DNA of 64,000 nt from Gemmatimonadales bacterium (GTDB lineage: Bacteria > Gemmatimonadota > Gemmatimonadetes > Gemmatimonadales > GWC2-71-9), in assembly GCA_035759745.1 (NCBI GenBank), contig DASTUF010000044.1:6099-70098 (forward strand). The letters run 5' to 3'. Made by a program: the position numbers and the translations under genes. This document shows positions 7,838 to 48,342 of the stretch, in pieces. The stretch's first letter is position 1. Each line of letters starts with the position of its first letter. A model generated the notes under the pieces. That model was not told the origin of the DNA and searched no databases. It saw only the letters and a program-made list of their open reading frames with translations.

Positions 7838-8743
7838 ATGGAGTCGTCGTTGACCAGCCCTGTCCTGCCGGCGCCCGCACGCGCGCCCGGATTCCTGCGC
7901 AGCTTCGCCGAGGCCGTCCGCGACGTGCGCCAGCACCGCGAACTGATGCTCGAGTTTGCCCGCCGGGACATCCGGATCCGCTACAAGCAGGCGGTGATGG
8001 GCTTCGGCTGGGCCATCTTCATGCCGATCCTCATCGTCCTCTCCGGCGTGATGATCCGCTACGCCATGGGGCAGGCGTCGGGCGGCGGGATCGGCCAGAC
8101 CGACATCGCCGGCATCGCCCTCAAGGGCGTGGCGTGGTCGTTCTTCGCCGGGGCGATCACGTTCGGCACCCAGGTGCTCACCGCCAACCACAACCTCATC
8201 GCCAAGGTCTTCTTCCCGCGCGAGGTGCTGCCGGTGGCCGCCGTGCTGGCCCAGACCTTCGACACCAGCATCGGGCTCGTGGCGCTGGCGCTGTTCCTGC
8301 CGTTCCTCGGCGTCGGGCTGCACTCGACCCTGGTCTGGCTGCCGCTGCTGCTTGCCCTGCTCTGGGTGCTCACCGCCGGGGTCGTGATCTTTCTCAGCTG
8401 CGCCAATCTCTTCTTTCGCGACGTGAAATACATCGTGCAGGTGGTCCTGACGTTCGGCATCCTGTTCACGCCGGTCTTCTACGAACCGGCGATGATGGGC
8501 GCGAGGGGCAGCATCATCATGTGGCTCAACCCGCTCACCCCGATCCTGGAAGGCCTCCGGCTGGCGGTGGTGGAAGGCCACAACCTGCTGCAACCGCTCA
8601 CGACGATCGCGAAGGACGGCACGACAGTGGACGTCTGGCGCCCCATGTCGTTGCTCTATACCGCCGCGTGGGCGGTGCCGGGGCTGCTCATCGCCACCGT
8701 GATCTTCCACCGCTCGCAGTCGGCATTCGCGGAAAATGTCTGA
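7838..8743 (+). CDS. ABC-2 type polysaccharide export permease (Wzm/TagG/KpsM-like)
   Basis: 301-aa ORF. RRDIRIRYKQAVMGFGWAIFMP is the ABC-2 signature region, with about 6 predicted TM helices. Overlaps the ATPase gene by 8 nt. Confidence 0.85.
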   Translation: MESSLTSPVLPAPARAPGFLRSFAEAVRDVRQHRELMLEFARRDIRIRYKQAVMGFGWAIFMPILIVLSGVMIRYAMGQASGGGIGQTDIAGIALKGVAWSFFAGAITFGTQVLTANHNLIAKVFFPREVLPVAAVLAQTFDTSIGLVALALFLPFLGVGLHSTLVWLPLLLALLWVLTAGVVIFLSCANLFFRDVKYIVQVVLTFGILFTPVFYEPAMMGARGSIIMWLNPLTPILEGLRLAVVEGHNLLQPLTTIAKDGTTVDVWRPMSLLYTAAWAVPGLLIATVIFHRSQSAFAENV

Positions 8744-9989
8744 GCGCGACGTGACGCCGGGCATCGAGTTCGAGCACGTCTGGAAGAAATTCCAGCGGGG
8801 CGAGCGGCACGACAGCCTCCGGGACTTCATTCCGTCGATGGCGCGCCAGCTCGTGGGCCGGGGCCCCACCGCGGCGGAGCTGGGCGCCAACCAGTTCTGG
8901 GCCCTCAAGGATGTGAGCTTCTCGGTCCAGCCGGGCGAGGTAGTGGGCATCATCGGCCGTAACGGTGCCGGCAAGTCCACCATCCTCAAGACCCTCACCC
9001 GCATCATCCCTCCCACCCTGGGCCTGGCCGAAACCCGTGGCCGGGTGGGCGCACTGATCGAGATAGCCGCCGGGTTCCACCCGGACCTGACCGGCAAGGA
9101 GAACGTGTACCTGCAGGGCGCCATCATGGGCATGCCCCGCAGCCTGATCCGCGAGCGATTCGACGACATAGTCGAGTTCTCCGGCGTCGGCCCGTTCATC
9201 GACACCCCGGTCAAGCGCTACTCCAGCGGCATGAATGCCCGGCTCGGCTTCGCTATCGCAGCCCACCTTTCGCCCGACGTGCTGATCATCGATGAAGTGC
9301 TCTCGGTGGGTGACTTCGAGTTCCAGCAACGGGCCTTCGGCCGGATGAAGGCGCTGGCCCGGAGCGGGATCCCGGTGCTGGTGGTGTCGCACCAGCTCGA
9401 GCGCGTGGCCGAACTCTGCACCAGCGTGCTGTTCATGGAGCGAGGAGAAGTACGCTTCGCGGGGCCCACCCTCGAGGCGATTCGCCACTACCTCGCGGTG
9501 GAGCAGGTGCCCAGCGACCCCGACAGTCCGGTGATCCTGGAGCAGATCGCGCTGGAGAGCGGCGAACAGCTGCGCTCGGGCGACAAGGTGCGGGTGCGCC
9601 TGTCGGGCCGGATCAACCCCGAGCGCGCCACCGGCAAGGAGCTGGTAGTGCTCTCGCTCCGGAACCTCCAGGATGGCCGAACCCTGGCGGCCATCACATC
9701 AGACCATGGCGGCGTGACGCTGCCGGGGTCGGGGCCGTTCGAACTCGAGTTCGAGCTGGAGCTCAATGTCCAGCCTGGCCTCTACGGGCTGGACTCGAGC
9801 GTGCGGGTCAAGGCCCAGACCCGGCGGGGCGATATCGCCGCGGGGCCCGGGGCCCACGTGCAGGTGCTGGCGGGACGGCCCTTCGAGGGCACCGTCCAGC
9901 CCAACGCGTCGGTGCGCCTCAGCGCCGAGCCGCCGAGCCGCCGAGCCGCCGAGAAGGCGGCCAGCAACCAACCATCCGGAACCTCATGA
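8736..9989 (+). CDS. polysaccharide ABC transporter ATP-binding protein (Wzt/TagH-like) with C-terminal beta-sandwich extension
   Basis: Walker A GRNGAGKST, signature YSSGM, Walker B LIIDE, plus about 160 aa beyond the NBD as in Wzt carbohydrate-binding domains. The last ~20 codons contain the octamer array 9924-9953. Confidence 0.9.
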   Translation: MSERDVTPGIEFEHVWKKFQRGERHDSLRDFIPSMARQLVGRGPTAAELGANQFWALKDVSFSVQPGEVVGIIGRNGAGKSTILKTLTRIIPPTLGLAETRGRVGALIEIAAGFHPDLTGKENVYLQGAIMGMPRSLIRERFDDIVEFSGVGPFIDTPVKRYSSGMNARLGFAIAAHLSPDVLIIDEVLSVGDFEFQQRAFGRMKALARSGIPVLVVSHQLERVAELCTSVLFMERGEVRFAGPTLEAIRHYLAVEQVPSDPDSPVILEQIALESGEQLRSGDKVRVRLSGRINPERATGKELVVLSLRNLQDGRTLAAITSDHGGVTLPGSGPFELEFELELNVQPGLYGLDSSVRVKAQTRRGDIAAGPGAHVQVLAGRPFEGTVQPNASVRLSAEPPSRRAAEKAASNQPSGTS

Positions 9990-10921
9990 AGACTCTTGTC
10001 ACCGGCGGCGCCGGGTTCATCGGCTCGCACATAGTGCGGCGCCTGCTCGACGACGGCCACCAGGTGCGTGTCATAGACAACCTCAGCACCGGCGACCGTG
10101 AGAACCTGGCGGAAGTGGCCGAGCGCATCGAGTTCATCGAAGGCGACATTCGCTCGCAAGGCGAGTGCGACCGTGCCTGCGACGCGACCGAGATGATCTT
10201 CCATGTGGCGGCGCTGCCGAGCGTGCCGAGATCGATAGCCAACCCGTGGGCGTCCCACGACCACAACGTGAACGGCACCATGCAGCTGCTCGAGGCCGCC
10301 CGCCGCGCCGGCAGCCGGAGGGTGGTGTACTCCAGTTCCAGCTCGGTGTACGGCGACACAGCGGTGCTGCCCAAGGTCGAGACCATGGAGCCGCTCTGCC
10401 GGTCGCCCTACGCCACGGCCAAGCTGGCGGGCGAACAGTATGTGCTGGCGTACGCGCGTGCCGGGATGCTGGAAGGCGTGGCGCTCCGCTACTTCAATGT
10501 CTTCGGCCCCCGGCAAAGTCCCACGAGCGCGTATGCGGCGGTCATCCCGGCGTTCCTCGAGGCGGCCCGTACCGGCAGCGTCGCTACGGTGCACGGCGAC
10601 GGTGAGCAGACCCGCGACTTCACCTACGTCGACAACGTGGTCCAGGCCAACATGAAGGCGGCGTTCGAGCCGGCTGACCGGGTCAACGGGTGGGTGACCA
10701 ACGCCGGCGCCGGCAGCAGAGCTTCGCTCAATCAGCTGCTGGAACTGGTGGAGACGGTGACCGGAGCGAAGGTGCAGCGAAGCTACGGCCCGCCCCGGGC
10801 CGGTGATGTGCGGGACTCCCAGGCGTCGCTCGACCGCGCCCGGAAGGTGCTGGGGTATGAACCTGACGTGGACCTGGAAACGGGACTACAGAAGACGTGG
10901 GAGTGGTTTCAAAACAAGTAG
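9986..10921 (+). CDS. NAD-dependent epimerase/dehydratase (UDP-sugar 4-epimerase-like SDR)
   Basis: MKTLVTGGAGFIGSH (GxxGxxG), SSSSVYG, and YATAK (YxxxK catalytic). ATGA overlap with the Wzt stop. Confidence 0.9.
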   Translation: MKTLVTGGAGFIGSHIVRRLLDDGHQVRVIDNLSTGDRENLAEVAERIEFIEGDIRSQGECDRACDATEMIFHVAALPSVPRSIANPWASHDHNVNGTMQLLEAARRAGSRRVVYSSSSSVYGDTAVLPKVETMEPLCRSPYATAKLAGEQYVLAYARAGMLEGVALRYFNVFGPRQSPTSAYAAVIPAFLEAARTGSVATVHGDGEQTRDFTYVDNVVQANMKAAFEPADRVNGWVTNAGAGSRASLNQLLELVETVTGAKVQRSYGPPRAGDVRDSQASLDRARKVLGYEPDVDLETGLQKTWEWFQNK

Positions 10922-11026
10922 GAAGTGGGGAGTGGGAAGTGGGAAGTGGGATGAAAGAAGCGAGGGGCTCCCGACAGGGGGCCCCTCGCTTCCTTCCACT
11001 TCCTGCTTCCTGCTTCCCACTTGCTA
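10919..11026. repeat. long hairpin with tandem GGGAAGT heptamer arms; probable bidirectional terminator
   Basis: Left arm gTAGgaagtggggagtgggaagtgggaagtggg, inner stem gaagcgaggggc/gcccctcgcttc, right arm ttccacttcctgcttcctgcttcccacttgCTAc. It spans exactly from the TAG of the epimerase to the TAG (complement) of the convergent PEP-CTERM gene. Confidence 0.8.
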
Positions 11027-11674
11027 CTCAGCCTTCTTCCGCCTGATCAGGCCTACGCCCCCCATTCCGGCCAGCCCGGTGGCGAGCAGCGCCATGCTGA
11101 TCGGCTCCGGAATGACGGTGGTCGGTGGGCCGCAGCCCTCCAGGTAGACGCCGCCCGACGGGCCGCTGGCGGTGTTGTTGGCGTCGATGAAGGTCTTGGA
11201 CGATGTGCAGTTCGCAGGACCATCCCGGAAATGGAGGCCCAACGCCAGCGCGCCAATGTTGTCATCGAACGCTGCATCAAAGGTGAAGGTGAACTCGCCG
11301 GTCTCACCCAGCCCCAGCGCACTCGGCGTGTTGTCGGCGGTGAACCCGTAATACGTCAGGCCCAGGTCGCCGGCACCGCTGAGCTCGTTCTGCACCCCGA
11401 ACGCGCCGTAGCCGGTGGCCCCGGTACCCGCGGTCGGTGTGGCGCCGCCGACGCCGATGCTACCCAACGGGAAGGCGCCGTCGTTGGTGACGGTGAGCGT
11501 CAGCACGTTGGTGGCGGGGTCGTATGACGTGGTGAACGTGGCGCACGTATAGAAGCTGAGCCCGCCACAGACCTGGGTGTTGGTCCACGGTCCGAACGCA
11601 TGCGCGCTCGCGGCGGTGCCGACGGCCAGTGCCGCCGTTACGCCAAGGGCTCTCATCCAGGTGGAATGATTCAT
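11024..11674 (-). CDS. PEP-CTERM sorting-domain secreted protein (paralog 1)
   Basis: ORF trimmed to MNHSTWMRALGVTAALAVGTAASAHA (signal peptide). The C-terminus VIPEPISMALLATGLAGMGGVGLIRRKKAE has the PEP motif, a TM helix and a basic tail. Confidence 0.85.
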   Translation of the reverse strand: MNHSTWMRALGVTAALAVGTAASAHAFGPWTNTQVCGGLSFYTCATFTTSYDPATNVLTLTVTNDGAFPLGSIGVGGATPTAGTGATGYGAFGVQNELSGAGDLGLTYYGFTADNTPSALGLGETGEFTFTFDAAFDDNIGALALGLHFRDGPANCTSSKTFIDANNTASGPSGGVYLEGCGPPTTVIPEPISMALLATGLAGMGGVGLIRRKKAE

Positions 11675-11820
11675 ACCTGCCTCGCGAACTCCGGCCCCAA
11701 GGGGGTGACCGCACTGCTGAGTGGCGCGGGGGCCGCTACGCACCAAGCAACAGTGTAACTCACAAGATGGGGGCTTGGTGTGAGGAGCGCCACATGTTGC
11801 ATGTCTCGACGTGGTGACGT

Positions 11821-11855
11821 TGCAAAATGAAAGCGCCCCGGAGGCCGGGGCGCTT
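11821..11855 (-). terminator. intrinsic terminator after PEP-CTERM paralog 2
   Basis: On the minus strand: AAGCGCCCCGG-cct-CCGGGGCGCTT followed by TCATTTTGCA. It lies 30 nt downstream of the stop at 11885. Confidence 0.7.
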
Positions 11856-11884
11856 CAATCCTGCACCTGTACTGCGCTTGACGA

Positions 11885-12532
11885 TTACGCCTGCTTGCGG
11901 CGACGAATCACCCCAGCGCCACCCATCCCGGCCAGGCCGGTCGCGAGCAGCGTCATGGTGATCGGCTCCGGCACCACCGTGGTGGCGCAGGCCGGGTCAA
12001 CCGTGTCGATCTCGGCCTCGGTGCCGTCGATGAACAGCTTGGTGGAGCACTGATTCGGGCCGCCCTGCGAGTGCAGCGCGAACTCCAGCGACTCGAGCGT
12101 CACCGCGGAGGAGAACGTCAGCGAGAACGAGTAGGTGATGCCGTCGTTGGTGATGCCGTCGGTGATGCCGTTGGTCTCGAAGCCCGAGAACTTCGGGTTG
12201 GCGCCATCGGGATCGCCGCCCAGCGAGTTGACTTCGTCAGCGAACGCCCATCCCGAGAGCCCGGCGTCGATCGAGTTGGCAGAGGCCGTGACGTCACGGA
12301 TGCCGAACGCGGTAAAGGTGTCGCCGTTGGTCGAGGTGTTCTGAATGTCGATCGTCAACGTGCTGGTGCCGTCGAGGTTGTCGACATACGTGGTGGTCAG
12401 CGTGGCGCACGTCTGGAACAACGTGCCACCGCAGACCTCGGTGTTGGTGAAGGGGCCGAACGCCATCGCATTACCGGCCGTAAAGGCCAGCAGCGCGGCG
12501 GCGGCACCCACTCCGCGGATGATGTGCTTCAT
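11885..12532 (-). CDS. PEP-CTERM sorting-domain secreted protein (paralog 2)
   Basis: ORF 11885..13006 trimmed to MKHIIRGVGAAAALLAFTAGNAMA (ATG 12532, GAGGAG upstream). The C-terminus is VVPEPITMTLLATGLAGMGGAGVIRRRKQA. It shares AFGP(W/F)TNT(Q/E)VCGG..F.TCAT.TT.Y and NC(T/S)(S/T)K.FID blocks with paralog 1. Confidence 0.85.
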   Translation of the reverse strand: MKHIIRGVGAAAALLAFTAGNAMAFGPFTNTEVCGGTLFQTCATLTTTYVDNLDGTSTLTIDIQNTSTNGDTFTAFGIRDVTASANSIDAGLSGWAFADEVNSLGGDPDGANPKFSGFETNGITDGITNDGITYSFSLTFSSAVTLESLEFALHSQGGPNQCSTKLFIDGTEAEIDTVDPACATTVVPEPITMTLLATGLAGMGGAGVIRRRKQA

Positions 12533-12576
12533 CTCTGTGCTACTCCTCGGTTCAGGGGAATGGTACCACACCTCTG

Positions 12577-13083
12577 CTACTTGCTCCTGCGAATGTGCCG
12601 CAGCCCTACGATCCCCAGCCAGCCGAACGCGACCGGGTACAACACTGCCTGCGCCACCGTCTTGGCCACCGACTTCTTGAGGCCCTGCCGGGCCGCCGGC
12701 TCCTGCACCGTCTGGAACGCGAGCGGCAGGTTCAGTGCCCAGATCAGGGTGACGCCCAGGATCACGATGGCCGCGACAATCGCCACGATCGACCAGATTC
12801 GGAGCCCCATGGTCCAGCCGCGCGCGGCCGCCGCACCTGCCAGCAGCGCCAGTCCCAGCATCGGCACCGGCAGCGCGTTCAGCAGCGATCCGATGGTGCC
12901 GAACTCCCAGTCGGGATTGCCGAAGTGCAGCGGATACGCCGCCAGCGCCATGTCCAGCAAGCCCGAGATGAACAGCACCGCACCGACGAATCCCAGCAAA
13001 CGCCACCCGAAATCGGGCGCTGCGGGAAGCCAGGTCCTCTTGCCAGCCTGCTCGTCCCGCACCAGAATGCGCGGCGCATCCAT
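12577..13083 (-). CDS. small integral membrane protein, function unknown
   Basis: 168-aa ORF with an ATG start, four hydrophobic helices and high GC3. No recognisable motif. Confidence 0.6.
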   Translation of the reverse strand: MDAPRILVRDEQAGKRTWLPAAPDFGWRLLGFVGAVLFISGLLDMALAAYPLHFGNPDWEFGTIGSLLNALPVPMLGLALLAGAAAARGWTMGLRIWSIVAIVAAIVILGVTLIWALNLPLAFQTVQEPAARQGLKKSVAKTVAQAVLYPVAFGWLGIVGLRHIRRSK

Positions 13084-13272
13084 GGGCCCTCGATATGGCG
13101 ATACGGTGAGTGATGCTATGCAGGTGTCGGGCCGAAAATTGCGCGCCGCCGCCTGGGGGACTATCTAGTTTCAGGACAACAATTTACTTGACACCGGAAG
13201 ACTTCTCAACCCGGCCACCCGCAGTCACAACCACACAGCAGGTGTGGCGACAAGTCCGCACCACGGAAGAAC

Positions 13273-14490
13273 ATGCGCCTTCGCGCCCGTCCGCTCACAC
13301 TGCTGATTCTTGCACTCGGAGCCATTCTCTGGCTCACCCTGGAACCGCTCCCGGCCCAGGCTGAGGCTACCCAGCTCAGCCCCTGGACCTGCCTGCTCTG
13401 CGGCACTCAAGGGAGCGCCGATTTTCTGCTCAACGTTGCGCTCTTCGTGCCACTGGGCGCGGCCCTGGCATGGCTCGGTACCGGGCGGCTCAAAACGCTC
13501 GCGTTCGGTGCCGGGCTCTCGCTGGCTATCGAGTTGGCACAGGCCACGTTAGCCGCAGGCCGCGACCCCGCGATGGGCGACGTCCTGGCCAACAGCCTGG
13601 GGGCTTTGGGGGGTAACTGGACGGCGATCGCCCTGCCAGGGTTGTGGTACCCGACCATCAGTCGCGCGCGACGGCTCGCCACGGTTGCTGGAGTTGGCTG
13701 GCTCCTGATGACCGTCGTCACCGGCTGGCTGGTGCTTCCCGCTCCGGCGCCGGCCCAGCCCATCGTGCTGGTCGCCCCCGACCGTCCACTGATCGAGGCC
13801 TTCGCCGGCCAGGTGCTGGGAGTCACGGTCGATGGCGACACGTACGCCGAGGGGCCGCTCCCGGCCGCAAACGCCATGAGCCTGGATCCGCGGCGGGTCC
13901 GGCTGGGAGCCGGGGTCGTCACTGGCGCGCTCACCGAGCGGGTGGCGCCGCTGGTCGAGCTCACCAGCCCCGACTCGACCGTCTGGGCCCGCCTGGCCCA
14001 ACTGGGCCAGAAAGGCACCTTCGCCGTCAGGCTCCACAGTACCAGCGTCAAGCTGATGACCCCGGACGTGCGGGTGCACCGCGCCATCCCGATGGTGGGA
14101 GCAGTGCCGGCAGAGTTCAGTGGCTCGCTCGATGGTGCGGTACTGACTGCGGAAGTGATCGTGGGCGACTCGACCCATCGCCATCGGCGGGCGCTCACTC
14201 CCGGCCTGGGATGGGCGCTGTTGCTGCCGTTCAACTACCCGCTCGATCACATGGGGGCCTGGCCATCGGCGGTCTGGCTGGCGCTGACGCTGCTGCCCTT
14301 CGCCTTCTGGCTGGGGCGAGCCCGGCTACCGCTTCCCTGGGCAATCACCGCCAGTGTCGCGCTGCTCGCCCTCGGCATCCATGGCAGCGCCGCGCTCTTC
14401 CAGCTTCGCAACGACGGCATCGAGGCCTGGCTCTGCTGTGGGCTGGCGCTCGTGGTGGGCCGGGTGCTTGGGCAGGGGAGAACTGCTTAA
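13273..14490 (+). CDS. VanZ-like family membrane protein with long C-terminal extension
   Basis: The N-terminal ~125 aa match VanZ features (FLLNVALFVPLGAALAW...LSLAIELAQ...RDPAMGDVLANSLGALGG). The remaining ~280 aa are unassigned and end in further TM helices. Confidence 0.65.
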   Translation: MRLRARPLTLLILALGAILWLTLEPLPAQAEATQLSPWTCLLCGTQGSADFLLNVALFVPLGAALAWLGTGRLKTLAFGAGLSLAIELAQATLAAGRDPAMGDVLANSLGALGGNWTAIALPGLWYPTISRARRLATVAGVGWLLMTVVTGWLVLPAPAPAQPIVLVAPDRPLIEAFAGQVLGVTVDGDTYAEGPLPAANAMSLDPRRVRLGAGVVTGALTERVAPLVELTSPDSTVWARLAQLGQKGTFAVRLHSTSVKLMTPDVRVHRAIPMVGAVPAEFSGSLDGAVLTAEVIVGDSTHRHRRALTPGLGWALLLPFNYPLDHMGAWPSAVWLALTLLPFAFWLGRARLPLPWAITASVALLALGIHGSAALFQLRNDGIEAWLCCGLALVVGRVLGQGRTA

Positions 14491-14575
14491 CCACAGAGCC
14501 ACAGAGGACACGGAGAGATCGAGCTAGTTCTCCGTGAATCTCTGTGTACTCTGTGGCTCTGTGGTTGCTTTTGTT
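14489..14575. repeat. hairpin with CCACAGAG-type tandem units; terminator between convergent genes
   Basis: aaccacagagccacagaggacacggagagat ... atctctgtgtactctgtggctctgtggtt followed by gcTTTTGTTT. It starts inside the TAA of the VanZ-like gene and ends at the TAA (complement) of the HNH gene. Confidence 0.75.
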
Positions 14576-15165
14576 TACGCGACGACTGCCGTCTCCCCGC
14601 CGAGGGCGCGGAGCGCGTCCTCGCCGTAGAACAGCCGGATGTACTTGGCCTGGATCGGCGTCAGCCGGCGGACCGCCCACGCGAGGTGCACGAAGTGGGG
14701 TTCCATCGGCGGGTGCATGGGGAACATCCCGCACTCCGATGGCAGCCGGTTGCCCTTGCGGGTGTTGCAGCTGCTGCACGCGGTGACGACGTTGGCCCAG
14801 TCGTTCCCGCCACCCCGCGACAGCGGCACCATGTGGTCGCGGGTGAGGCACTCCCGGTGCCGCAGGTCGTGGGCGGTGCGGTGGCAGTACTGGCAGCGGT
14901 AGTCGTCGCGGGCGAAGAGGAACGTGTTGGTGACCTGGCGACGGAACCGGCGGGGAACGTGGACGAACTTGACGAGGCGGATGATGGCGGGTCTCGGATA
15001 CACCGAGCGCGCACTTCGCACGAGGTCGCCCTCGTGAGACTCGACGATCTCTGCCTTTCCTTCGATGACCAGCCGTAGCGCCCGACGCATGGGCACCATG
15101 GTCAGTGGTTCGAAGGAGGCATTGAGCGCGAGACAGCGCACAATTCTTCTCCGGTCCAGGGTCAC
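14575..15165 (-). CDS. HNH endonuclease family protein
   Basis: ORF 14575..15315 trimmed to GTG 15165 (VTLDRRRIVRCLALNASFEPL...). HNH core: DDYRCQYCHRTAHDLRHRECLTRDHMVPLSRGGGNDWANVVTACSSCNTRKGN. Confidence 0.8.
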   Translation of the reverse strand: MTLDRRRIVRCLALNASFEPLTMVPMRRALRLVIEGKAEIVESHEGDLVRSARSVYPRPAIIRLVKFVHVPRRFRRQVTNTFLFARDDYRCQYCHRTAHDLRHRECLTRDHMVPLSRGGGNDWANVVTACSSCNTRKGNRLPSECGMFPMHPPMEPHFVHLAWAVRRLTPIQAKYIRLFYGEDALRALGGETAVVA

Positions 15166-15220
15166 GTGTGCTTGCCGCGGTCCCTGTACGCTAACAAGAC
15201 AGCGACCATGGCAGCAAGCG

Positions 15221-17458
15221 TCATTCAGGCCTGGGTGCGGCCCCCACCGTGTCGGTCTGCTGCAAGGGCTGGGCCCCCGGAGCGCCCTGGGGGAACATCC
15301 CGCCGCCGATACCAAAGGGATTGAGGATCCCCTGGGTGTGGACCGGGCAGTACTGGGTCGGCTCGGTGCCAGGAATGAACGACTCGATCAGGTGCACCTC
15401 GGTGGGGCAGAACGCGGTGGCCAGGAATCCGGTCGTGTTGTCCACTTCCGCGGCCGCGAGGTCGGCCGGCCGGCGCCATGCAGCGGGCGCCTCCCGCCGT
15501 GCATAGATCTCGTTCATCAGCGTGGTCCACGCCGGCGCGGCCAGGCGCCCGCCCTGCGCGTTGTTCATGATGCGTGTGGGCTGGTCGAATCCCATCCACA
15601 CCCCCGTCACCAGGTCGGGAGTGAAGCCGATGAACCACACATCGTTGTAGTCGTTGGTGGTACCGGTCTTGCCGCCGGCCGGAAAGCGGATGCGCGACCC
15701 GACCGAGCCTGCCGCGGTTCCCCGCCGCACCACGTCCCGCAGCACATCGACCATCAGCCACGCCTGCTCCCGGCTCATCACCGGCTCCAGCCGGGGCCGG
15801 GGCTGCCAGACGATCGTGCCCTCGCGGTCCTCCACCCGTTCGATGAAGTACGGCACCGCGCGATCTCCCATGTTGGAGAACGCGGTGTAGGCCGCAACCA
15901 TCTCCAGCGGCACCACGTCGGCGGATCCGATGCTGATCGCCGGCACCGGCAGGATCCGGGCGGTGATACCGTAGCGCCGGGCCTCGCCGACCACGTTATC
16001 GAGACCAATCTCCATGCCCAGCTTGACCGCCGGGATGTTGCGCGACTGATAGAGGTGATAGCGCAGCGTATGGGGACCGCTGAACTCGAGGTCGTAGTTC
16101 TGCGGGGTCCAGAGATCCTGGCCCGGCACCTGGAGGCTGAACGGTTCGTCCACCACCACGTGCGAGAGCGGAATCCCCGAGCGGAGCGCCGCTGAATACA
16201 CGAACGGCTTGAAGGTCGAGCCCGGCTGGCGCTGAGCCTGGGTGGCGCGGTTCCACTTGCTGTCCCCGAAGTCGCGGCCACCCACCAGCGCCCGCACCGC
16301 ACCGGTGCCCGCCTCGACCGTCACCAGCATCCCCTGCAGATACGGCGAGTTGGGGGCGTTGTCGTCACCCCCGTCGGCCCCCTGGCCCTGTTCCTCGAGG
16401 TACTCGGCGTATGTGATATGCCGGAACCCGGGCATCGCCTCCACCGCCCGCAGCTGCTCCTCCATTGCCCGTTCGGCCGCGAGCTGCACGTCGAGGTCGA
16501 GAGTGGTGTAGACCCGGTATCCCTCGCGGTAGAGGTCGGCGCCGAACCGCGCCTGGAGAATCTGCCGCACGTGCTCCACGAAGTACTGCGCGTCACCCGA
16601 GAAGTCGGACTGGGTGGAGAGCGTCAGCGGGTAGGCCTTCCACCGCTCCGCTTCTTCCGCGGTGATGCGGCCGTTGTCCTCCATCAGGCTTATGACGAGG
16701 TTGCGCCGCTGGATGCTGTTGCTGGGATGCCGCCGCGGGTTGTAGCGCTCCGGTGCCTTCGGAATGGCGGCGAGCGTCGCCGCTTCCGCGACATTGAGCT
16801 CGCGCACCGACTTGCCGAAGTAGCGCTGGGAGGCGGCCTCCACCCCGTACGCGCGATTGCCCAGGTTGATCTGGTTGAGGTAGAGCTCGAGGATCTTGTC
16901 CTTCGGATACAGCCGCTCGATCTCCATCGCCACCTTCGCCTCGCGGATCTTGCGGCTCAGCGAGATGTCGCGCCGGTCGATGGCGTCGGAGAAGATGTTG
17001 CCGGCCAGCTGCATGGTGATGGTGGATGCTCCGCCGGCGATCTCGCGCTCGACGATCATGTCCTTGATCGCGCCGAAGACCCGGATCCAGTCCACCCCGC
17101 CGTGGGAATAGAAGCGCTTGTCCTCGGTGCTGATGAACGCGGCGAGCACCGCGGGAGAGATCTCGGAGATCGGCACCACCGTGCGGCGCTCGAGCCCCAG
17201 GTCGCTGATGAGCCGGCCGTCCGCGGCGTACACCTTGGCGGCCTGCACCGGGTCGTAGCTGTCGAGGTTCTCCACCGAGGGGCAGGCGTCGCCCATGCAC
17301 ACCGTCAGCCAGGCGGCGAGCACCACAGCAATGCCCAGTACGAAGAGCCCGCCAAGCCCCAGCGCGAGGGCGCGCCTCACCCGAGGCGTGAACCATCGCC
17401 GTTTCGGGTGGCGTGCTGGGGTGGGCGAACCGGAAGCGGAGTCGACCGGAGGGACCAT
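15221..17458 (-). CDS. mrcA: penicillin-binding protein 1A (bifunctional glycosyltransferase/transpeptidase)
   Basis: 745 aa. GT51 motifs (EDKRFYSHGGVD, GASTITMQL, RKIREA) and transpeptidase motifs (STFKP, SRN, KTGTTN). Confidence 0.9.
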   Translation of the reverse strand: MVPPVDSASGSPTPARHPKRRWFTPRVRRALALGLGGLFVLGIAVVLAAWLTVCMGDACPSVENLDSYDPVQAAKVYAADGRLISDLGLERRTVVPISEISPAVLAAFISTEDKRFYSHGGVDWIRVFGAIKDMIVEREIAGGASTITMQLAGNIFSDAIDRRDISLSRKIREAKVAMEIERLYPKDKILELYLNQINLGNRAYGVEAASQRYFGKSVRELNVAEAATLAAIPKAPERYNPRRHPSNSIQRRNLVISLMEDNGRITAEEAERWKAYPLTLSTQSDFSGDAQYFVEHVRQILQARFGADLYREGYRVYTTLDLDVQLAAERAMEEQLRAVEAMPGFRHITYAEYLEEQGQGADGGDDNAPNSPYLQGMLVTVEAGTGAVRALVGGRDFGDSKWNRATQAQRQPGSTFKPFVYSAALRSGIPLSHVVVDEPFSLQVPGQDLWTPQNYDLEFSGPHTLRYHLYQSRNIPAVKLGMEIGLDNVVGEARRYGITARILPVPAISIGSADVVPLEMVAAYTAFSNMGDRAVPYFIERVEDREGTIVWQPRPRLEPVMSREQAWLMVDVLRDVVRRGTAAGSVGSRIRFPAGGKTGTTNDYNDVWFIGFTPDLVTGVWMGFDQPTRIMNNAQGGRLAAPAWTTLMNEIYARREAPAAWRRPADLAAAEVDNTTGFLATAFCPTEVHLIESFIPGTEPTQYCPVHTQGILNPFGIGGGMFPQGAPGAQPLQQTDTVGAAPRPE

Positions 17459-17516
17459 GGGTGGAAGCTAGCGGGCCGCTTGCCGCCTCACCAGCGCGCC
17501 CCTACTCTTGGCCCTC

Positions 17517-18770
17517 ATGTCCGGTTACTTCGAGCAGCTCTCCCGCCGCGGGCTGGTGCAGGATGCCACTCCCGGCGCCGCCGAGCGCCTGAATGCGGGC
17601 CCGGTCACGGCCTACATTGGCTTCGACCCTACCGCGTCCTCGCTCCATGTAGGCAACCTGGTGCCGGTCATGTGCCTGGCGTGGCTCCAGCGCAGTGGCG
17701 GTACCCCCATCGCCCTGGTCGGCGGGGGTACGGGCCTCGTGGGCGACCCTAGCGGCAAGCGATCCGAGCGCCCGATGCTCACGGCCGAGGAGGTCGCCGC
17801 CAACGCGGCGGCGCTGGCCACCCAGCTGGGCCGTTTCCTCAGCTTCGAGGGTGCCAACGCCGCGCGCATGGTCAACAACGCCGACTGGCTGGCGCGGCTG
17901 CCGCTGATGGAGTTCCTGCGCGAAACCGGCAAGCACTTCACCGTCAATTACATGCTGCAGAAGGAGTCGGTAAAGAGCCGGATGGAGACGGGGATCTCCT
18001 TCACCGAGTTCAGCTACATGCTGGTCCAGGCCTACGACTACTGGCACCTCTTCACGTCCGCCGGCGTCGAGCTGCAGATGGGCGGGAGCGACCAGTGGGG
18101 CAATATCACCGCCGGTGTCGAACTGATCGCCCGAAAGGAACAGAGGCAGGCGCACGCGGTGGTCGCGCCCTTGCTGGTTACCGCGTCGGGCCACAAGTTC
18201 GGAAAGAGCGAGGCAGGCAATGTCTGGCTTGACCCCGCCCGTACCAGCCCGTACCAGTTCTATCAGTTCTGGCTCAATGCGGAGGATCAGGACGCCGAGC
18301 GGTGGCTCCGGATCTTCACTTTCCTGCCCGAGGAGCAGATAGCCGTCGCGCTGGCGGAGCATGCTCACGATCCCGGCAAGCGCGCCGCCCAGCGGACCCT
18401 GGCCTGGGAAGTCACCGCGCTGGTGCACGGAGAGGAAGAGGCCGACCGCGCCGCCCGAACCAGCATCGCGGTGTTTGGCAGGGCCGACGTCGAGTCCGAT
18501 TACGCCGAGCTGGCCGGCACCATGCCCAACGCCAGGCTGTCGCGCGAGGAGCTCGAGAGCGGGCCCGCGCTGGTGGATGTGCTGGTCCACGCCGGGCTCG
18601 CGTCCTCCAAGAGTGAGGCCCGGCGCGGTCTCCAGGGCCGTGGCTTCTCGATCAATGACGAGCAGGAAGGTGACGTCGCCCGCCGCTTGTCGGCCGCGGA
18701 CCTGCGTCAGGGTCGCTTCGTGCTGCTGCGGAAAGGGAAGAAGAATTACGTGATGCTGGTAGTGGACTGA
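17517..18770 (+). CDS. tyrS: tyrosine--tRNA ligase
   Basis: [14 protein letters not shown] (HIGH-type), KFGKSE (KMSKS-type), and a C-terminal S4-like domain. The track start 17508 is TTG; I prefer ATG 17517. Confidence 0.9.
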
Positions 18771-18820
18771 GCGGGAGCTGCGCCCAGCGGGGACTCCGCC
18801 CAGCGGGAAAGCGGGAGGTC

Positions 18821-21019
18821 ATGCGCATAATCCCAAGCGTCCTCGTACCGATGCTGATCGCCGCCGCGTTGGCAGCGACGGCGCGGAGCGCGGTGGCACA
18901 AGGCCCTGCAATCGACGCGCGCACTGCTTACGCCGCACTGCTTCATTCCCACTACCAGGTGGGCAGCGAGCCCGGTAGTCCCGAGGCCCGCTTCGACCGG
19001 GCGATGGCCCGGCTGGAACTCCATCGCCAGGGAGCCTTCTCGCGGCCGGGCGTGGGTGGAATGATCTCGGGCGAGGCGTACTACGCCGGGTTCGTTCGCG
19101 ATCTCGAGGGTGTGTTCGCGCTGGACAGCATGTTCCAGCCGGCGCTGGAGTTCCTTCCCGAGTTTCTTGCCCATCAGGGCGACCGCGAACAGTCACCCAT
19201 CCTGCTCGCCGCGCTGGCGCGCTATGCCCGCGATTCGGCGGCCCCACCCATTACCCACCTGGTGCTGGGCCGTGGTTACCGCACCGCGGGTAGCTACGAC
19301 AGCGCACTCTCCGCCTTCATAGCCTATGAGGAGGCAGGAGGGGACCCGGGTGTGGCCCGGCTCGAGGCCGCGCGCACGCTCGCGGGCCTGGGCCGGCTGG
19401 ACGGGGCGGCCGAGATGTACCTCGACGGGGCCTCCCAGCCGGGCGAGCCCACCCGGCTCTTCTACCGCAACGACCTCAAGTGGGTGGCCAGTGACGAAGA
19501 GCTGGCGCCCTTCGACTCGGTGCCGGCCGAGCGGCGCGCCGACTGGATCAAGCGGTTCTTCCAGCTGCGCGACGCCGAAGCCATTCGCCTTCCCGGCGAG
19601 CGACTGCGGGAGCACCTCCGCCGGTGGGACTACGTGCATCACCACTTCCGGGTGCCCAATCCCGGGCGATGGTCCCAGTTCGTGCAGGTATACGGCCGGG
19701 AGATCGCGCCCTGCATGCGCGGGCTGCCCGACGAACTGAACCTCCGGACTCTTGCCTTTGATCCGTCACGCCGCCATGACGCCCGCGAGGAGGAAGCGGT
19801 GCTGGACCACCGGGCAGTGATCTACATGCGCCACGGGCGGCCCAGCGCGGTGATGGTGCTCAACGGTGTGGCGTCGGACTCCCTGGACGTGCTGATGACG
19901 GAGCCGGGGCTGGCGTCTGATTCGGCGAGGATCGACAGGCTCCTCGGAGCGGACGTGGCGAACTCGGTCTGGGTCTACTGGTTCAGCGGCCGCCCCAGAA
20001 CATTCAGCTTCGGTGCCAGCATCCCCAATAGCCGGTGGGGCGGCAAGGTGCTGTCGCTGAGCAATCCCCCCGTCGCAGTGTTGCGATCGCTGGCTCAACT
20101 CGACCCGCTCTATGGGCGGGCCGCGCGGATGGCGGTGTCGCGCGCCGCCATGCCTTGGCGCCCGGCAGTGCCGACCGCGTGCATGCCCACCTTCTCCCGG
20201 CTCGCGATCCAGGTGGAGGAAGACGCGGTCGAAGGCGCTCACAGCGACAGCTACACCCTGACCTTCGAGTCATCGCTGGGCGCGGTGCTCCAGGCCGGAG
20301 CGGTCGGCGATCCTGCCAAGGGTACGGGGCGCCTGCTGCTGGTGTTCGCGGTGCCCACCGGGCGACTCACGGCCCGGCAGGCCGATGACGGCAAGCGTTA
20401 CGACCTCAGACTTCGGTTGACGGCAGTGAGTGATTCAGGTGAAGTGGTGCTGGCGCTCGATACGCTGCGCACCCTGGTCGCACCGGTGGCTCCGATCGAA
20501 GGCCAGTTCGTCACCTGGCTGATGGAGCTTCCGATGCCGGCCGGCACCTACGACATCCGCGCTGCACTGATGACGCCCGATGCGGCGGCCGGCGGGTTCC
20601 GGGAATGGGAGGGCGTTCGTTTCGGAACCACCGCCAGTGCCCCCGGGCTGAGCGACATGATCCTGGCGCGCGAGAGCAGCGGACTCACCTGGCAGAACGG
20701 CGGCGACCGGGTGGAACTCAACCCGCTGGATGCCTACGACGAGGGCGGCAATGCACTGGTGTACTACGAGGGCTTCAACCTGGTACCGGGCCGCCGCTAT
20801 CGGACGACACTCACGCTCGCACCCAGCGATGGCGACGACGATGACGGCGTGACGCTGCGCTTCACCGAAACCGCCGCTGGCACGTCGCAGCATTTCCGGC
20901 GCGGAATCGGTCTGCAGCAGCTCGACGACGGCCCCCATCGGCTGACGGTGACGTTGACTGACCTGAATTCGGGAGCAGAGGCTCGGCGAACGCGAGAAAT
21001 TCGCATTATCGAGAAGTAG
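18821..21019 (+). CDS. secreted protein, probable GWxTD-domain family
   Basis: Signal peptide MRIIPSVLVPMLIAAALAATARSAVAQ with GGGAGG upstream. ERRADWIKRFFQLRD...LDHRAVIYMRHGRPSAV resembles the FW..RD / GWxTDRG..Y..YG.P blocks of GWxTD proteins, but the motif is degenerate. Confidence 0.5.
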   Translation: MRIIPSVLVPMLIAAALAATARSAVAQGPAIDARTAYAALLHSHYQVGSEPGSPEARFDRAMARLELHRQGAFSRPGVGGMISGEAYYAGFVRDLEGVFALDSMFQPALEFLPEFLAHQGDREQSPILLAALARYARDSAAPPITHLVLGRGYRTAGSYDSALSAFIAYEEAGGDPGVARLEAARTLAGLGRLDGAAEMYLDGASQPGEPTRLFYRNDLKWVASDEELAPFDSVPAERRADWIKRFFQLRDAEAIRLPGERLREHLRRWDYVHHHFRVPNPGRWSQFVQVYGREIAPCMRGLPDELNLRTLAFDPSRRHDAREEEAVLDHRAVIYMRHGRPSAVMVLNGVASDSLDVLMTEPGLASDSARIDRLLGADVANSVWVYWFSGRPRTFSFGASIPNSRWGGKVLSLSNPPVAVLRSLAQLDPLYGRAARMAVSRAAMPWRPAVPTACMPTFSRLAIQVEEDAVEGAHSDSYTLTFESSLGAVLQAGAVGDPAKGTGRLLLVFAVPTGRLTARQADDGKRYDLRLRLTAVSDSGEVVLALDTLRTLVAPVAPIEGQFVTWLMELPMPAGTYDIRAALMTPDAAAGGFREWEGVRFGTTASAPGLSDMILARESSGLTWQNGGDRVELNPLDAYDEGGNALVYYEGFNLVPGRRYRTTLTLAPSDGDDDDGVTLRFTETAAGTSQHFRRGIGLQQLDDGPHRLTVTLTDLNSGAEARRTREIRIIEK

Positions 21020-21039
21020 TCACCGTACTCGCAGACGAT

Positions 21040-21090
21040 CAGGGCGCTCCCCTCCGGCAGATACGTGACCTGCCTGCGGGGAGCGCCCTG
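21040..21090. other. 13-bp perfect stem-loop between convergent genes
   Basis: CAGGGCGCTCCCC (21040-21052) pairs with GGGGAGCGCCCTG (21078-21090), with an inner GGCAG/CTGCC stem. There is no U-tract, so a terminator role is uncertain. Confidence 0.5.
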
Positions 21091-21217
21091 ACCGTCTGGC
21101 TTCCAAGGTCTGATGCCCCGGAGCGCCGGGTCGGGAGCGATGTCGCCGAAGGCGACACGTGCCGAGCAGCGGCTATTAGCCGCGTGCCCAAGCCAGGCTC
21201 GGGCCCCTTCGCTTCGC

Positions 21218-22291
21218 TCAGGGTGACGACTGCCCTACCGCCTCGACTTTTATCGCCGCCGTCGGACAATCGCTCACATAGGGCGCTGACACCGGGCCCC
21301 ACTCGTGCGACTCCTGGACCACCACCGCCTTGTCGCCTTCCATCCGGAACACCGCCGGCGCGCGGGTGGCGCAGAGGCGGCAGCCGATGCAGAGCTCCTG
21401 GTCCACCCGCACGGTGACATTGCGACGCGGGTGGAGCCCGCCGCCGAGTTGGTCCAGCGGCGTCGTGAGCGAGTCCAGGGCCTCGAGCGTGGCCCGATGG
21501 CCCTCGGCCACGAGCGATGCAGTCCGGTTGAACGCGAACATAGGTACACTGGAAACCCTGGGCTCGATCAGCAGCAGCGGCGGGCCGTGCCAGCCCCGGA
21601 GATTGCCCTCGATCTGCGACTGCATCACTATCTCGAGACCCCGGGTGTACGTGGCGGCGAAGCCGGTAGTCTCAGCCTCGGTCCGGACCGTCCCCATGGC
21701 GGTGAGATTCACGGCTATGACCGGATCGGGACTGAGGACACCGGCCAACCGGACCGCCAGGTTCTCGATCACCGCGCCGTCCACGTAGGTGCGATCCCCG
21801 ATGGTCCTGGGCGGGAACATCCCCGGCAGGGCGCACGAGGCATAGACGGCATCGCGGACCCGGGCATCGCGACGCCCGACCATGCCCCAGAACACCTGGC
21901 GCCCGGCGTGCAGGTCTACCGTGTTCACCAGCAGCGGCCGCCAGAGGTCGTCGAAGCGGACATCGCCGATGAGGCTGGTGATCAGTTCATCGAGCGGTTC
22001 GCGCCGGTAGATCGCCGGGCTGTTCATCCGCCGCAGCGCCATGTCCACATGCGCCACCTGGAACACGTGCTTCCGGCGGACCAGTCGCGCGCGGGCTTCC
22101 ATCTCGCGAATCGGCATCCCGCTGGCCCATGCGCCCGCGATCAGCGCGCCCATGCTGGTGCCGATGCTGAGCGCCACCGACACACCGCGTTCCTCCAGCG
22201 CGCGAAAGACCCCGATGTGGGCCAGGCCCTTGAGCCCGCCACCGCCGAGAACCAGCGTGACGCGCAGCCCGCTTGTGGTATGTGAGGACAT
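21218..22291 (-). CDS. patatin-like phospholipase fused to a C-terminal single-cluster ferredoxin domain
   Basis: N-terminus LGGGGLKGLAHIGV (oxyanion GGGxxG) and GTSMG (GxSxG nucleophile). The C-terminal ~60 aa, VRVDQELCIGCRLCATRAPAVFRMEGDKAVVVQ...CPTAAIKVE, show the CxxCxxC...CP ferredoxin pattern. Confidence 0.8.
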   Translation of the reverse strand: MSSHTTSGLRVTLVLGGGGLKGLAHIGVFRALEERGVSVALSIGTSMGALIAGAWASGMPIREMEARARLVRRKHVFQVAHVDMALRRMNSPAIYRREPLDELITSLIGDVRFDDLWRPLLVNTVDLHAGRQVFWGMVGRRDARVRDAVYASCALPGMFPPRTIGDRTYVDGAVIENLAVRLAGVLSPDPVIAVNLTAMGTVRTEAETTGFAATYTRGLEIVMQSQIEGNLRGWHGPPLLLIEPRVSSVPMFAFNRTASLVAEGHRATLEALDSLTTPLDQLGGGLHPRRNVTVRVDQELCIGCRLCATRAPAVFRMEGDKAVVVQESHEWGPVSAPYVSDCPTAAIKVEAVGQSSP

Positions 22292-22310
22292 GCGGGTAAG
22301 CTAATCCGGA

Positions 22311-23153: not shown

Positions 23154-23250
23154 AAGTGGGAAGTGGGAAGTGGGGAGTGGGGAGTGGGTTAGATTCCTCC
23201 TTCCACTTTCCACTTTCCACTTTCCACTTCCCACTTCCCACTTCCCACTC
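23154..23250. repeat. long hairpin with tandem GGGAAGT heptamer arms
   Basis: aagtgggaagtgggaagtggggagtggggagtggg - ttagattcc - tccttccactttccactttccactttccacttcccacttcccacttcccactc. It begins 1 nt after the dppC TGA and ends 11 nt before the TTG start of the next gene. Confidence 0.8.
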
Positions 23251-23261
23251 TGAGCCACAGC

Positions 23262-24407: not shown

Positions 24408-24470
24408 GAGTCAAGAGTTACTCTCATCTCTCATCTCTCGGCTCTTAACTCTCAACTCTCAACTCTCGAT
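24386..24470. repeat. long hairpin with tandem GAGAGTT-type heptamer arms
   Basis: cgagtcgagagttaagagttgagagtcaagag / ctcttaactctcaactctcaactctcga. By my alignment about 26 of 28 positions pair. The loop holds ctctcat ctctcat. The left arm encodes the last 7 codons and TGA of the aminotransferase. The right arm ends 2 nt before ATG 24471. Confidence 0.8.
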
Positions 24471-26027: not shown

Positions 26028-26164
26028 CGGACAACCCCACGGCGCGAAGCGCGACCACCGACGCCCCCCATCCGTGCGCTTCGCCGCTCGCCCCTCTGCC
26101 TCCCTCCGGCGCCAAAGGCCGGCGGGCTGGCCCCCTTCGGCCGAAGCAATGCGGCGACCCCGTT

Positions 26165-26214
26165 GGGGGCGCCCGCCGAGCCACGCCGCCTGCGGGAGGC
26201 AGCGGGGCTCGCGG
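26165..26214. repeat. REP-like ~50-bp imperfect-hairpin element, copy 1
   Basis: gggggcgcccgccgagccacgccgcctgcgggaggcagcggggctcgcgg. Its reverse complement recurs at 47478-47526 with one mismatch over the ~42-nt core. Confidence 0.7.
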
Positions 26215-26229
26215 TGGAATGCTCTGGCG

Positions 26230-27417: not shown

Positions 27418-27422
27418 GGGCC

Positions 27423-28988: not shown

Positions 28989-29056
28989 GAATCGAAGGTT
29001 AGGGCAACGGCGGGGGTGGGGCAACGCGGTGGCAGGCGCTTCTGGCCGGCCGTAAG

Positions 29057-48010: not shown

Positions 48011-48034
48011 CGGATTGGCAGGATTCGAACTGCA

Positions 48035-48329: not shown

Positions 48330-48342
48330 ACCGCCGAGCCGC

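Follow-up and report, generated by a model that had tools for sequence, protein, structure and literature searches.

The 64,000-nucleotide stretch analysed here, referred to as the window, comes from a Gemmatimonadales bacterium (assembly GCA_035759745.1, contig DASTUF010000044.1, positions 6,099 to 70,098). It contains six long intergenic hairpins whose arms are themselves tandem arrays of a short unit. Repeat arrays were called with Tandem Repeats Finder on the 64-kb window, and the program reports each of the six, five with units of 7-8 nt and one with a unit of about 20 nt. All six also fold, with z scores of about -5 to -14 when the folding free energy (dG) is compared with dinucleotide shuffles. 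Both the tandem-repeat arms and the hairpins had been proposed at these six loci in an initial annotation of the window, and both are real. Genes flanking the hairpins were identified by protein family searches. The six hairpins are listed below and are called, in this order, the 10919, 14489, 23154, 24386, 29459, and 52548 hairpins.

10916-11029, no strand: hairpin, dG -95.5 kcal/mol, z -14.2; AAGTGGG x5.1 at 10916-10951 facing CTTCCTG x2.7 at 10999-11017 (Tandem Repeats Finder); convergent spacer between an NAD-dependent epimerase gene (+, TAG 10919-10921) and a PEP-CTERM-like gene (-, stop 11024-11026)
14487-14568, no strand: hairpin, dG -52.4 kcal/mol, z -8.9; octamers CCACAGAG facing CTCTGTGG at 14491-14564 (Tandem Repeats Finder); convergent spacer between a VanZ-like gene (+, TAA 14488-14490) and an HNH endonuclease gene (-, stop 14575-14577)
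23150-23254, no strand: hairpin, dG -67 kcal/mol, z -8.4; AAGTGGG x5 facing TTCCACT x7 at 23154-23249 (Tandem Repeats Finder); co-directional, from the stop TGA 23151-23153 of an oppC-like gene to the start TTG 23262 of a class V aminotransferase gene
24383-24472, no strand: hairpin, dG -41.6 kcal/mol (+ strand) and -45.8 kcal/mol (- strand), z -6.5 and -7.0; AGAGTTA/ACTCTCA at 24393-24467 (Tandem Repeats Finder), units GAGAGT(T/C); co-directional, from the aminotransferase end (TGA 24405-24407, inside the arm) to a HerA-like ATPase gene (ATG 24471)
29444-29582, no strand: nested hairpin, dG -77.1 kcal/mol, z -9.6; 20-nt unit x3.2 at 29446-29511 facing 20-nt and 14-nt units at 29517-29577; adjoins the stop 29580-29582 of a minus-strand gene, with the next gene's start about 460 nt further
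52548-52614, no strand: hairpin, dG -34.2 kcal/mol (+ strand) and -42.7 kcal/mol (- strand), z -5.2 and -6.4; GAGTCGA x4.4 and CTCTCAA x3.3 at 52551-52612 (Tandem Repeats Finder), units GAGAGT(C/T); minus-strand operon, right edge overlapping the lipid kinase stop CTA 52611-52613, sigma-54 response regulator start at 52515

The arms differ in composition from one hairpin to another. In the 10919 hairpin, outer arms of (A/G)AGTGGG x5 and CTTCC(T/A)(G/C) units enclose a 16-bp GC-rich core hairpin at 10953-10996. The arms of the 23154 hairpin pair AAGTGGG/GAGTGGG x5 with TTCCACT/TCCCACT x7, and the units of about 20 nt in the 29459 hairpin contain GCGTGAA.

Each of the six hairpins has one edge on a stop codon. 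The base of the 10919 hairpin is formed by TAG 10919-10921 and CTA 11024-11026, and the two convergent stops thus lie in the stem base, as the initial annotation stated. Its further placements of an arm start inside a TAA and of an arm end in a TAG agree with the sequence as well: TAA 14488-14490 overlaps the arm start of the 14489 hairpin, and CTA 52611-52613 overlaps the arm end of the 52548 hairpin. The start of the sigma-54 response regulator lies about 36 nt past the left edge of the latter. The 5' arm of the 24386 hairpin, which was thought to encode seven codons and a TGA, does contain the TGA and codes for the last six aminotransferase codons; its 3' arm stops 1 nt short of ATG 24471. 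A stop-to-stop layout, initially assigned to the whole family, describes the 10919 and 14489 hairpins and a third element at 48008-48346, but does not describe the 23154, 24386, 52548, and 29459 hairpins. Because two of the six hairpins are convergent and four run from a stop toward the next co-directional gene, one edge on a stop codon is the correct rule.

Two other features of the window had been named alongside the six hairpins, a half-array at 62647-62680 and an element near 48035 resembling a miniature inverted-repeat transposable element (MITE):

48008-48346, no strand: 339-nt hairpin, dG -185 kcal/mol, z -13.6; takes up the entire convergent stop/stop spacer between a 142-amino-acid gene without Pfam match and a phosphopantetheinyl transferase gene
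62649-62678, + strand: single array AGTGGGA x4.3 without inverted partner (Tandem Repeats Finder)

The 339-nt hairpin is mostly non-periodic. Doublets are present in both arms as claimed (48053, 48293), and their unit is the 9-mer TCGCAGATT. The half-array is confirmed as an array but not as a hairpin, the fold of the region 62644-62730 being not significant (z -1.6). It begins 4 nt past the stop 62642-62644 and falls in the start region, or the signal-peptide n-region, at the 5' end of a Peptidase_S13 gene. In the open reading frame (ORF) that opens at ATG 62637, the Pfam match to Peptidase_S13 begins at residue 38, and the array is followed by a signal-peptide-like stretch. At the 14489 hairpin, the HNH endonuclease gene (14575-15315, - strand; Pfam HNH 3e-14) ends 8 nt from the repeat arms (14489-14566), and NCBIfam gives its product a weak similarity to the HNH portion of IscB/Cas9d.

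The G+C content of the window is 66-72%. An energy-based local folding scan (RNALfold-style) was uninformative at 68% GC and returned hundreds of windows below -30 kcal/mol, and half of the loci escaped a detector based on chaining exact 7-mer seeds. A stem detector written for this analysis, which scores ungapped Watson-Crick stems and retains those with a score of at least 15, was used instead. It finds seven regions in the 64-kb window, and 30 dinucleotide shuffles yield none. Each of the seven lies between genes, in a window that is about 87% coding by our own gene calls; the seventh, at 21032-21098, is an ordinary non-periodic GC-rich hairpin. The Rfam 15 covariance models give no match at gathering score in the whole window.

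A comparative set was assembled by searching a genome collection with the aminotransferase as query. The search returned 80 loci, almost all from Gemmatimonadales metagenome-assembled genomes (MAGs), the closest being L002 with 91% protein identity. The window and the 80 loci together comprise 1.36 Mb, in which genes were called with a simple codon-usage caller of our own. Reverse-complement pairing of the Tandem Repeats Finder arrays yields 31 inverted pairs and no direct pair. The inverted pairs are located in 23 of the 80 loci, and nearly every locus has a different unit. The stem detector finds 49 long hairpins in the set. Under a strict periodicity threshold, 24 of the 49 are periodic, with a period of 7 in 19, of 8 in three, and of 9 in two; with the slightly looser threshold applied for gene context, 29 hairpins count as periodic and 7 as semi-periodic. 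A period of 7 is also found in 68 of 125 intergenic arrays. The 181 kb of intergenic DNA contain 68 period-7 arrays of at least three copies, and the 1,179 kb of coding DNA contain 22, which corresponds to a density about 20-fold higher between genes.

The gene context of these hairpins is restricted. The 29 periodic hairpins occupy 22 co-directional and 7 convergent sites, and the 7 semi-periodic ones are all convergent. None of the 191 divergent spacers contains a periodic hairpin, although such spacers make up 30% of inter-gene spacer bases (43.6 of 144 kb). The stop-side (5') edge of the periodic hairpins lies mostly -5 to +12 nt from the stop codon. Palindromic arrays occur throughout Gemmatimonadales and sit solely 3' of stop codons. 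Related genomes share the layout with many different units, which bears out the initial view of a family set by architecture and not by one sequence.

The median spacer of co-directional and convergent gene pairs in the 81 sequences is 9 nt. Only about 19% of the called starts have a Shine-Dalgarno-like 4-mer between -18 and -4, and the figure for a control window is 15%. These values point to a gene organisation in the clade that is compact, largely Shine-Dalgarno-independent, and coupling-rich.

The junction between the PBP1A and amidohydrolase genes was compared in 49 genomes. The spacer is 0-14 nt long in 26 of them, and in 15 a heptamer hairpin of 64-98 nt spans the distance from stop to ATG. 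The units at this junction include GGGGCTC/GGGGTTC, GGGACTA, CGGTGAG/CGGTAAG, AGGTGCC, and GCTATCG. L045 contains a lone GGGGACG x3 array (8738-8760) and no hairpin, and two of the 49 genomes contain a different, non-periodic palindromic element. In a neighbour-joining tree built from the flanking proteins, most hairpin bearers fall into one clade. The same clade holds the hairpin-free L076, L050, L032, and L030, a decayed hairpin in L043, and a replaced unit in the sister pair L020 and L031. According to the tree, the hairpin was inherited within the clade, changed its unit, and was lost several times, and the hairpins of L040, L060, and L062 look like separate acquisitions.

The two junctions on either side of the aminotransferase gene display a similar range of states. 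Between oppC and the aminotransferase, the stop TGA overlaps the ATG (ATGA) in most relatives. Heptamer or octamer hairpins are present there only in the window (AAGTGGG), L002 (8-mers GGAGTGTG/GGAAGTGT), and L008 (AGGGACT). The aminotransferase of the window seems to have lost its ancestral ATGA-overlapping start along with roughly the first six codons; its present start is TTG 23262. Between the aminotransferase and herA, the genes overlap by 4 nt in L003-L007, a GAGAGTT hairpin is present in the window, and a single CCCACTT/CCCACTC x5 array (11132-11170) without partner is present in L002. This array and the lone array of L045 fill stop-to-start spacers where relatives have hairpins. Such single arrays may be precursors or remnants of the palindromic form.

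The window and L002 share 87-91% nucleotide identity, and their comparison confirms the expected variation of unit number between relatives: the 29459 element of L002 has one 20-nt unit fewer than that of the window. The L002 orthologue of the 14489 hairpin (1290-1467) is a two-tier structure of 180 nt, in which a conserved CCACAGAG/CACGGAGA core lies inside CACGAAGG octamer arms. This arrangement suggests growth by a new unit family added at the stem base. L002 also has a CGGTAAGG octamer hairpin at a junction where the window has a non-periodic GC-rich spacer (26028-26229). The spacer, about 200 nt long, follows the herA-like stop and contains a 44-nt imperfect inverted repeat (26084-26127 / 26171-26214). 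Units drift along the arrays, in line with the slippage-type dynamics that had been suggested for them. At these junctions the position and architecture of the hairpins persist, and their unit, copy number, and even presence turn over quickly.

The stop/start junctions that hold heptamer hairpins are taken, in other genomes, by a palindromic element with several hairpins and no periodicity (L017 9850-9952, L023 9856-9997, L058 9862-9952, L038 15185-15278, and L044 15374-15532). It is sequentially composed of CCNGGGC-TGAAG-CCCGGG, an outer stem CTCGGC...GCCGAG around GCGTCC-TTAA-GGACGC, and CCGGCCC-TTCAG-GGC. At the oppC/aminotransferase junction the element has TGA...TGA flanks, with a GGAGGA-like motif just before the start. 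The copy in L017 has no Rfam match. The element looks like a dispersed, possibly mobile sequence.

Units are shared within genomes more often than between them. Among pairs of distinct sites, a unit family is common to 12 of 63 pairs within a genome and to 110 of 2148 pairs between genomes, about a fourfold difference. At least four unit families are present in the 64-kb window, where GGGAAGT occurs at three loci with the identical 20-mer AGTGGGAAGTGGGAAGTGGG and GAGAGTY at two loci with the identical 19-mer GAGAGTTGAGAGTCAAGAG. CGTTTCC is found at three sites in L045, and GCTATCG at two sites each in L060 and L062. As local slippage alone leaves unit sharing across loci unaccounted for, intragenomic copying or a genome-specific bias is required. 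The claim that the loci do not represent one mobile sequence is correct in that their units differ, but unit sharing within genomes implies some copying or dispersal.

A metagenome scan was made with three GGGAAGT units as query. Among the matches listed, the contigs have 33-71% G+C and carry mostly single arrays and a few hairpins, and the arrays often grade into neighbouring heptamers. Since GGGAAGT is found in metagenome contigs of such different composition, the unit is not special to this organism.

The hairpins are polar at co-directional sites, where the G-rich arm comes first in 19 cases versus 2; at convergent sites the counts are 5 versus 5. Because the palindrome reads alike on both strands, the G-rich-arm-first order is an intrinsic property of the element. 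A scan of 10001-30000 with a terminator consensus gave one site, compared with a shuffle mean of 7.7. The site is the tip of the 29459 hairpin on the minus strand, which reads GCGTGAAAGGGATTCCCTTTCACGC then TTCTTCTTTT on the strand of its upstream gene, and the 20-nt units of this hairpin look like a tandemly duplicated terminator stem plus T-tract. The 14489 hairpin has a T-rich tail, GCTTTTGTTT, on the + strand and a loop too long for the consensus scan. The 10919, 23154, and 24386 hairpins were not flagged in the scan of 10001-30000, and the 52548 hairpin, located beyond that range, has no T-rich tail on inspection. The operon-junction hairpins (23154, 24386, 52548, and the PBP1A series) have no U-tract and are followed by the next start codon within 1-36 nt; they are unlikely to be efficient terminators.

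Two known repeat systems were rejected on inspection. The units are contiguous and have no spacers, which excludes CRISPR. Integron attC sites were rejected on the lack of GTTRRRY core sites and on the flanking genes, which are housekeeping genes in conserved synteny.

The arms of the hairpins are largely complementary. Watson-Crick pairs account for 887 of the 1013 positions (87.6%) in the 36 stems classed as periodic or semi-periodic. The third positions of conserved four-fold-type codons in the flanking genes are 55-69% identical between the genome pairs compared. Something maintains arm complementarity, because unconstrained arms at such third-position divergence should have lost far more of it. 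Mirrored positions at which both arms deviate from the unit consensus still pair in 21 of 21 cases, a count biased upward by stem selection. Co-directional junctions display no sense-strand excess of G·U pairs, with 22 transitions that give G·U on the sense RNA versus 33 that do so on the antisense only. Nor do fold energies compared on both strands indicate a sense-strand preference. Given that there is neither a G·U nor an energy bias, strand-symmetric arm-to-arm copying at the DNA level is favoured over base-pair-wise selection on mRNA. A strand-symmetric process of this kind leaves room for selection for 'a hairpin'.

We lean, with modest confidence, toward reading the elements as palindromic heptamer or octamer microsatellites of the same kind as the inverted GGGAATC arrays of Xanthomonas, with upkeep at the DNA level and confinement to positions 3' of stop codons. 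Repeat units would grow and shrink by replication slippage, and the arms would be kept complementary at the DNA level by arm-to-arm copying through template switching within the quasi-palindrome. The arrays would disperse to further stop-proximal sites of the same genome, and selection would purge those that disrupt genes or promoters. Once transcribed, the arrays would fold into highly stable hairpins, either between cistrons or at the 3' ends of mRNAs. Where sites are convergent, these hairpins would extend or duplicate terminator-like cores (29459, 14489, and 10919). In junctions that were ancestrally overlapping or 0-14 nt long, a hairpin flush with both codons would hold stop and start adjacent at the stem base, and termination-reinitiation coupling could thus outlast the insertion of the hairpin. 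The G-rich-arm-first order at co-directional junctions would keep C-rich Rho-loading RNA from being exposed after the stop.

Several points weigh against this reading. The comparative counts are not independent, as three orthologous junctions contribute many of the hairpins, and the gene calls are home-made. The stem-based counts (887 of 1013 and 21 of 21) are biased toward pairing, the stems having been chosen by Watson-Crick score. Slippage alone fails to account for the shared unit families or for the identical 19-20-mers at several loci, and ancestral spacers of 0-14 nt give little seed material for an array. Coupling and Rho avoidance are ideas that we infer. Finally, the lasting complementarity could equally be attributed to selection on RNA pairing.

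This last point leads to a second reading, in which the hairpins are primarily selected RNA elements and the repeats are merely how evolution builds long stems. They might act as terminators, as barriers to 3'-exonucleases, as intercistronic RNase III sites, or as stop-codon hairpins that throttle translation of the upstream gene. Arms that are about 88% complementary despite saturated synonymous divergence, mirrored variants that always pair, and strict adjacency to stop codons are consistent with such roles, as are the canonical terminator-like site at the 29459 tip on its gene's strand, the T-rich tail at 14489, and the GC-rich core at 10919. We nevertheless regard this reading as fairly unlikely. 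Neither the G·U counts (22 versus 33) nor the fold energies differ between sense and antisense in the way that it calls for, and genomes whose proteins are 87-93% identical differ in whether they have a hairpin, most relatives making do with a 0-14 nt spacer. The U-tract is missing from most elements, and in operon junctions a start codon adjoins the stem, where an efficient terminator would silence housekeeping genes. Less probable still are small non-autonomous mobile elements, MITE-like or akin to repetitive extragenic palindromic (REP) sequences and their hairpin-forming doublets (REPINs), inserted at stops by an enzyme acting in trans and later modified by slippage. Such elements would agree with the unit families that each genome has at several loci (AGTGGGAAGTGGGAAGTGGG at three window loci, GAGAGTTGAGAGTCAAGAG at two), with different families at one junction in close relatives (the GAGAGTT hairpin versus the CCCACTT array of L002 between the aminotransferase and herA), and with the truly dispersed non-periodic palindrome, TGA...TGA flanked, in the same junctions of other genomes. 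They would also be expected to have conserved termini, a terminal inverted repeat distinct from the array, and a consistent target-site duplication, none of which is seen, and the hairpins vary continuously in unit order and copy number. A transposase was not seen beside the elements, the HNH gene at 14575-15315 being a single case, and Rehm et al. found no association of the Xanthomonas arrays with insertion sequence (IS) elements (PMC4692102).

A bolder proposal, which we consider doubtful, is that the arrays are written actively at stops and not made by passive slippage. A genome-encoded factor would produce its own preferred heptamer as a palindromic array, and the hairpins would serve as functional operon punctuation, with stop and start kept together at the stem base for reinitiation and the junction shielded from Rho by the G-first order. 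If true, such programmed writing would jointly account for genome-specific units, for unit replacement at one junction in 88%-identical genomes, and for hairpins in ancestral ATGA overlaps. G-quadruplex-forming regulatory repeats with an incidental inverted partner, as proposed for GGGAATC and GGGGAYT, are a very unlikely explanation. The pattern of at least four G3+ tracts with short loops is present in the GGGAAGT-type arrays at 10919, 23154, and 62649; GGGAAGT, GGGGCTC, GGGACTA, and GGGGACG all give at least four such tracts with loops of 3-4 nt, and the G-rich arm lies beside the stop as in Xanthomonas. However, the pattern is absent from the GAGAGTT, CCACAGAG, and GCGTGAA units. About half of the families (for example GAGAGTT, CCACAGAG, CGGTGAG, AGGTGCC, GCTATCG, CACGACGC, and CGGTAAGG) lack a G3 tract, for which reason the G-quadruplex was rejected as a general explanation, and the hairpin would pair the G tracts with the C arm. 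That the hairpins are artefacts of short-read metagenome assembly is scarcely credible. Logan contig L001 (SRR22742207) does end, with 999-1027, exactly inside the GGGAAGT array of the 10919 hairpin, an indication that the arrays are hard for assemblers. Most of that hairpin, about 100 nt, is nonetheless identical to the window in L202, from a public sequencing run unrelated to that of L001, and its presence in two unrelated public runs argues that it is no assembly artefact. The elements moreover lie within contigs, between intact syntenic genes, occur in more than 20 independent assemblies from different studies, and have the same layout in finished Xanthomonas genomes (PMC4692102). Heptamer arrays break up short-read assemblies, and MAGs probably under-represent them.

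The palindromic microsatellites of Gemmatimonadales provide a clean natural experiment, in which one junction is empty, holds a single array, holds a hairpin with one of several families, or holds a decayed hairpin across dozens of genomes. They make it possible to ask how palindromic microsatellites arise, keep their arms complementary, and spread within a genome, and why they are tolerated only at stops. Among long simple-sequence repeats, heptamer repeats are reported to be the most abundant in most prokaryotes, yet their origin, their genome-specific units, and their function all call for explanation. The hairpins are also of practical concern. They break short-read assemblies, as in L001, and they rewrite gene ends in ways that affect annotation, as seen in the C-terminal extension of the aminotransferase (24386), the apparent loss of its ancestral start (23154 junction), and the array in the start region of Peptidase_S13 (62649).

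Among known systems, the elements share with intrinsic terminators the GC-containing stem-loops right after stops and, at 29459 (minus strand) and 14489, T-rich tails. Unlike intrinsic terminators, they have stems of 23-39 bp, far longer than needed, mostly lack a U-tract, and in several cases directly precede the next start codon. They differ from MITEs in having no consistent target-site duplication or fixed ends when filled and empty junctions are compared. Like the REP sequences and bacterial interspersed mosaic elements (BIMEs) of enterobacteria and pseudomonads, they are palindromes outside genes, placed at gene 3' ends and between the genes of operons. REP elements serve as mRNA stabilisers, weak terminators, and, beside the stop codon, modulators of translation, and are mobilised by REP-associated tyrosine transposases (RAYTs). 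In E. coli, Liang, Rudd & Deutscher reportedly found in 2015 that expression is lowered by REP hairpins lying no more than about 15 nt from a stop codon. REPs are described in PMC3733652 as 20-40 nt long, with a GTAG or CGTC tag and a consensus conserved within the family. The present elements, by contrast, have no consensus common to the loci, their arms are internally tandem, and GTAG is found only where a TAG stop supplies it. No RAYT/Y1 transposase is present among the flanking genes scanned, which are those of the 64-kb window.

The unit length relates the elements to simple-sequence repeats. According to a summary of Mrázek et al. 2007, heptanucleotides are the most abundant of the long simple-sequence repeats (5-11 nt units) in most prokaryotic genomes (PMC4679880). 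The same work, as summarised in PMC4679880 and PMC4692102, proposed polymerase slippage, 7 nt being the length that contacts the enzyme. The Gemmatimonadales elements resemble these repeats and the short tandemly repeated repetitive (STRR) heptamers of cyanobacteria (Calothrix; Nostoc GGGGA(C/T)T) as intergenic tandem heptamers with genome-specific units. However, long simple-sequence repeats are mostly single arrays on one strand, with few inverted pairs in Nostoc, whereas here hairpins predominate and fill stop-to-start spacers.

The closest counterpart is found in Xanthomonas. A literature search on repeats, hairpins, and intergenic elements of Gemmatimonadetes returned nothing relevant, and the initial annotation knew of no described element class with this layout. 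Rehm et al. 2015 had in fact already reported inverted heptamer pairs with the same positional rules (PMC4692102). They describe GGGAATC heptamer arrays in X. campestris (Xcc) and X. axonopodis (Xac), with 70-75 convergent pairs capable of forming a stem-loop per genome. These arrays are enriched between aligned ORFs and are rare between divergent ORFs and in coding DNA, and the G-rich array lies on the coding strand, either leaving 0-50 bp to the stop codon or overlapping it, a rule described for Xanthomonas and Nostoc alike. Their length and sequence vary between the close relatives Xcc and Xac, the type (single or inverted pair) being kept; they have no link to IS elements and no known function (all PMC4692102).

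The Gemmatimonadales elements match the Xanthomonas arrays as inverted pairs of tandem heptamers that are proximal to stops, are rare in or absent from divergent spacers, and carry the G-rich arm on the coding strand. The two differ in their units, since Xanthomonas has essentially one, read as a G-quadruplex, and a Gemmatimonadales genome appears to have several families, half of them unable to form a G-quadruplex. They differ also in phylum, here Gemmatimonadota, and in the composite forms, which comprise heptamer arms around a GC core, 20-nt units, and the two-tier 180-nt hairpin of L002. In addition, the series of orthologous junctions in Gemmatimonadales displays gain, unit replacement, and loss, which goes beyond the description given for Xanthomonas. 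Elements of this class had thus been described before, and the novelty lies in the phylum, in the number of different units, in the composite forms, and in the series of orthologous junctions.

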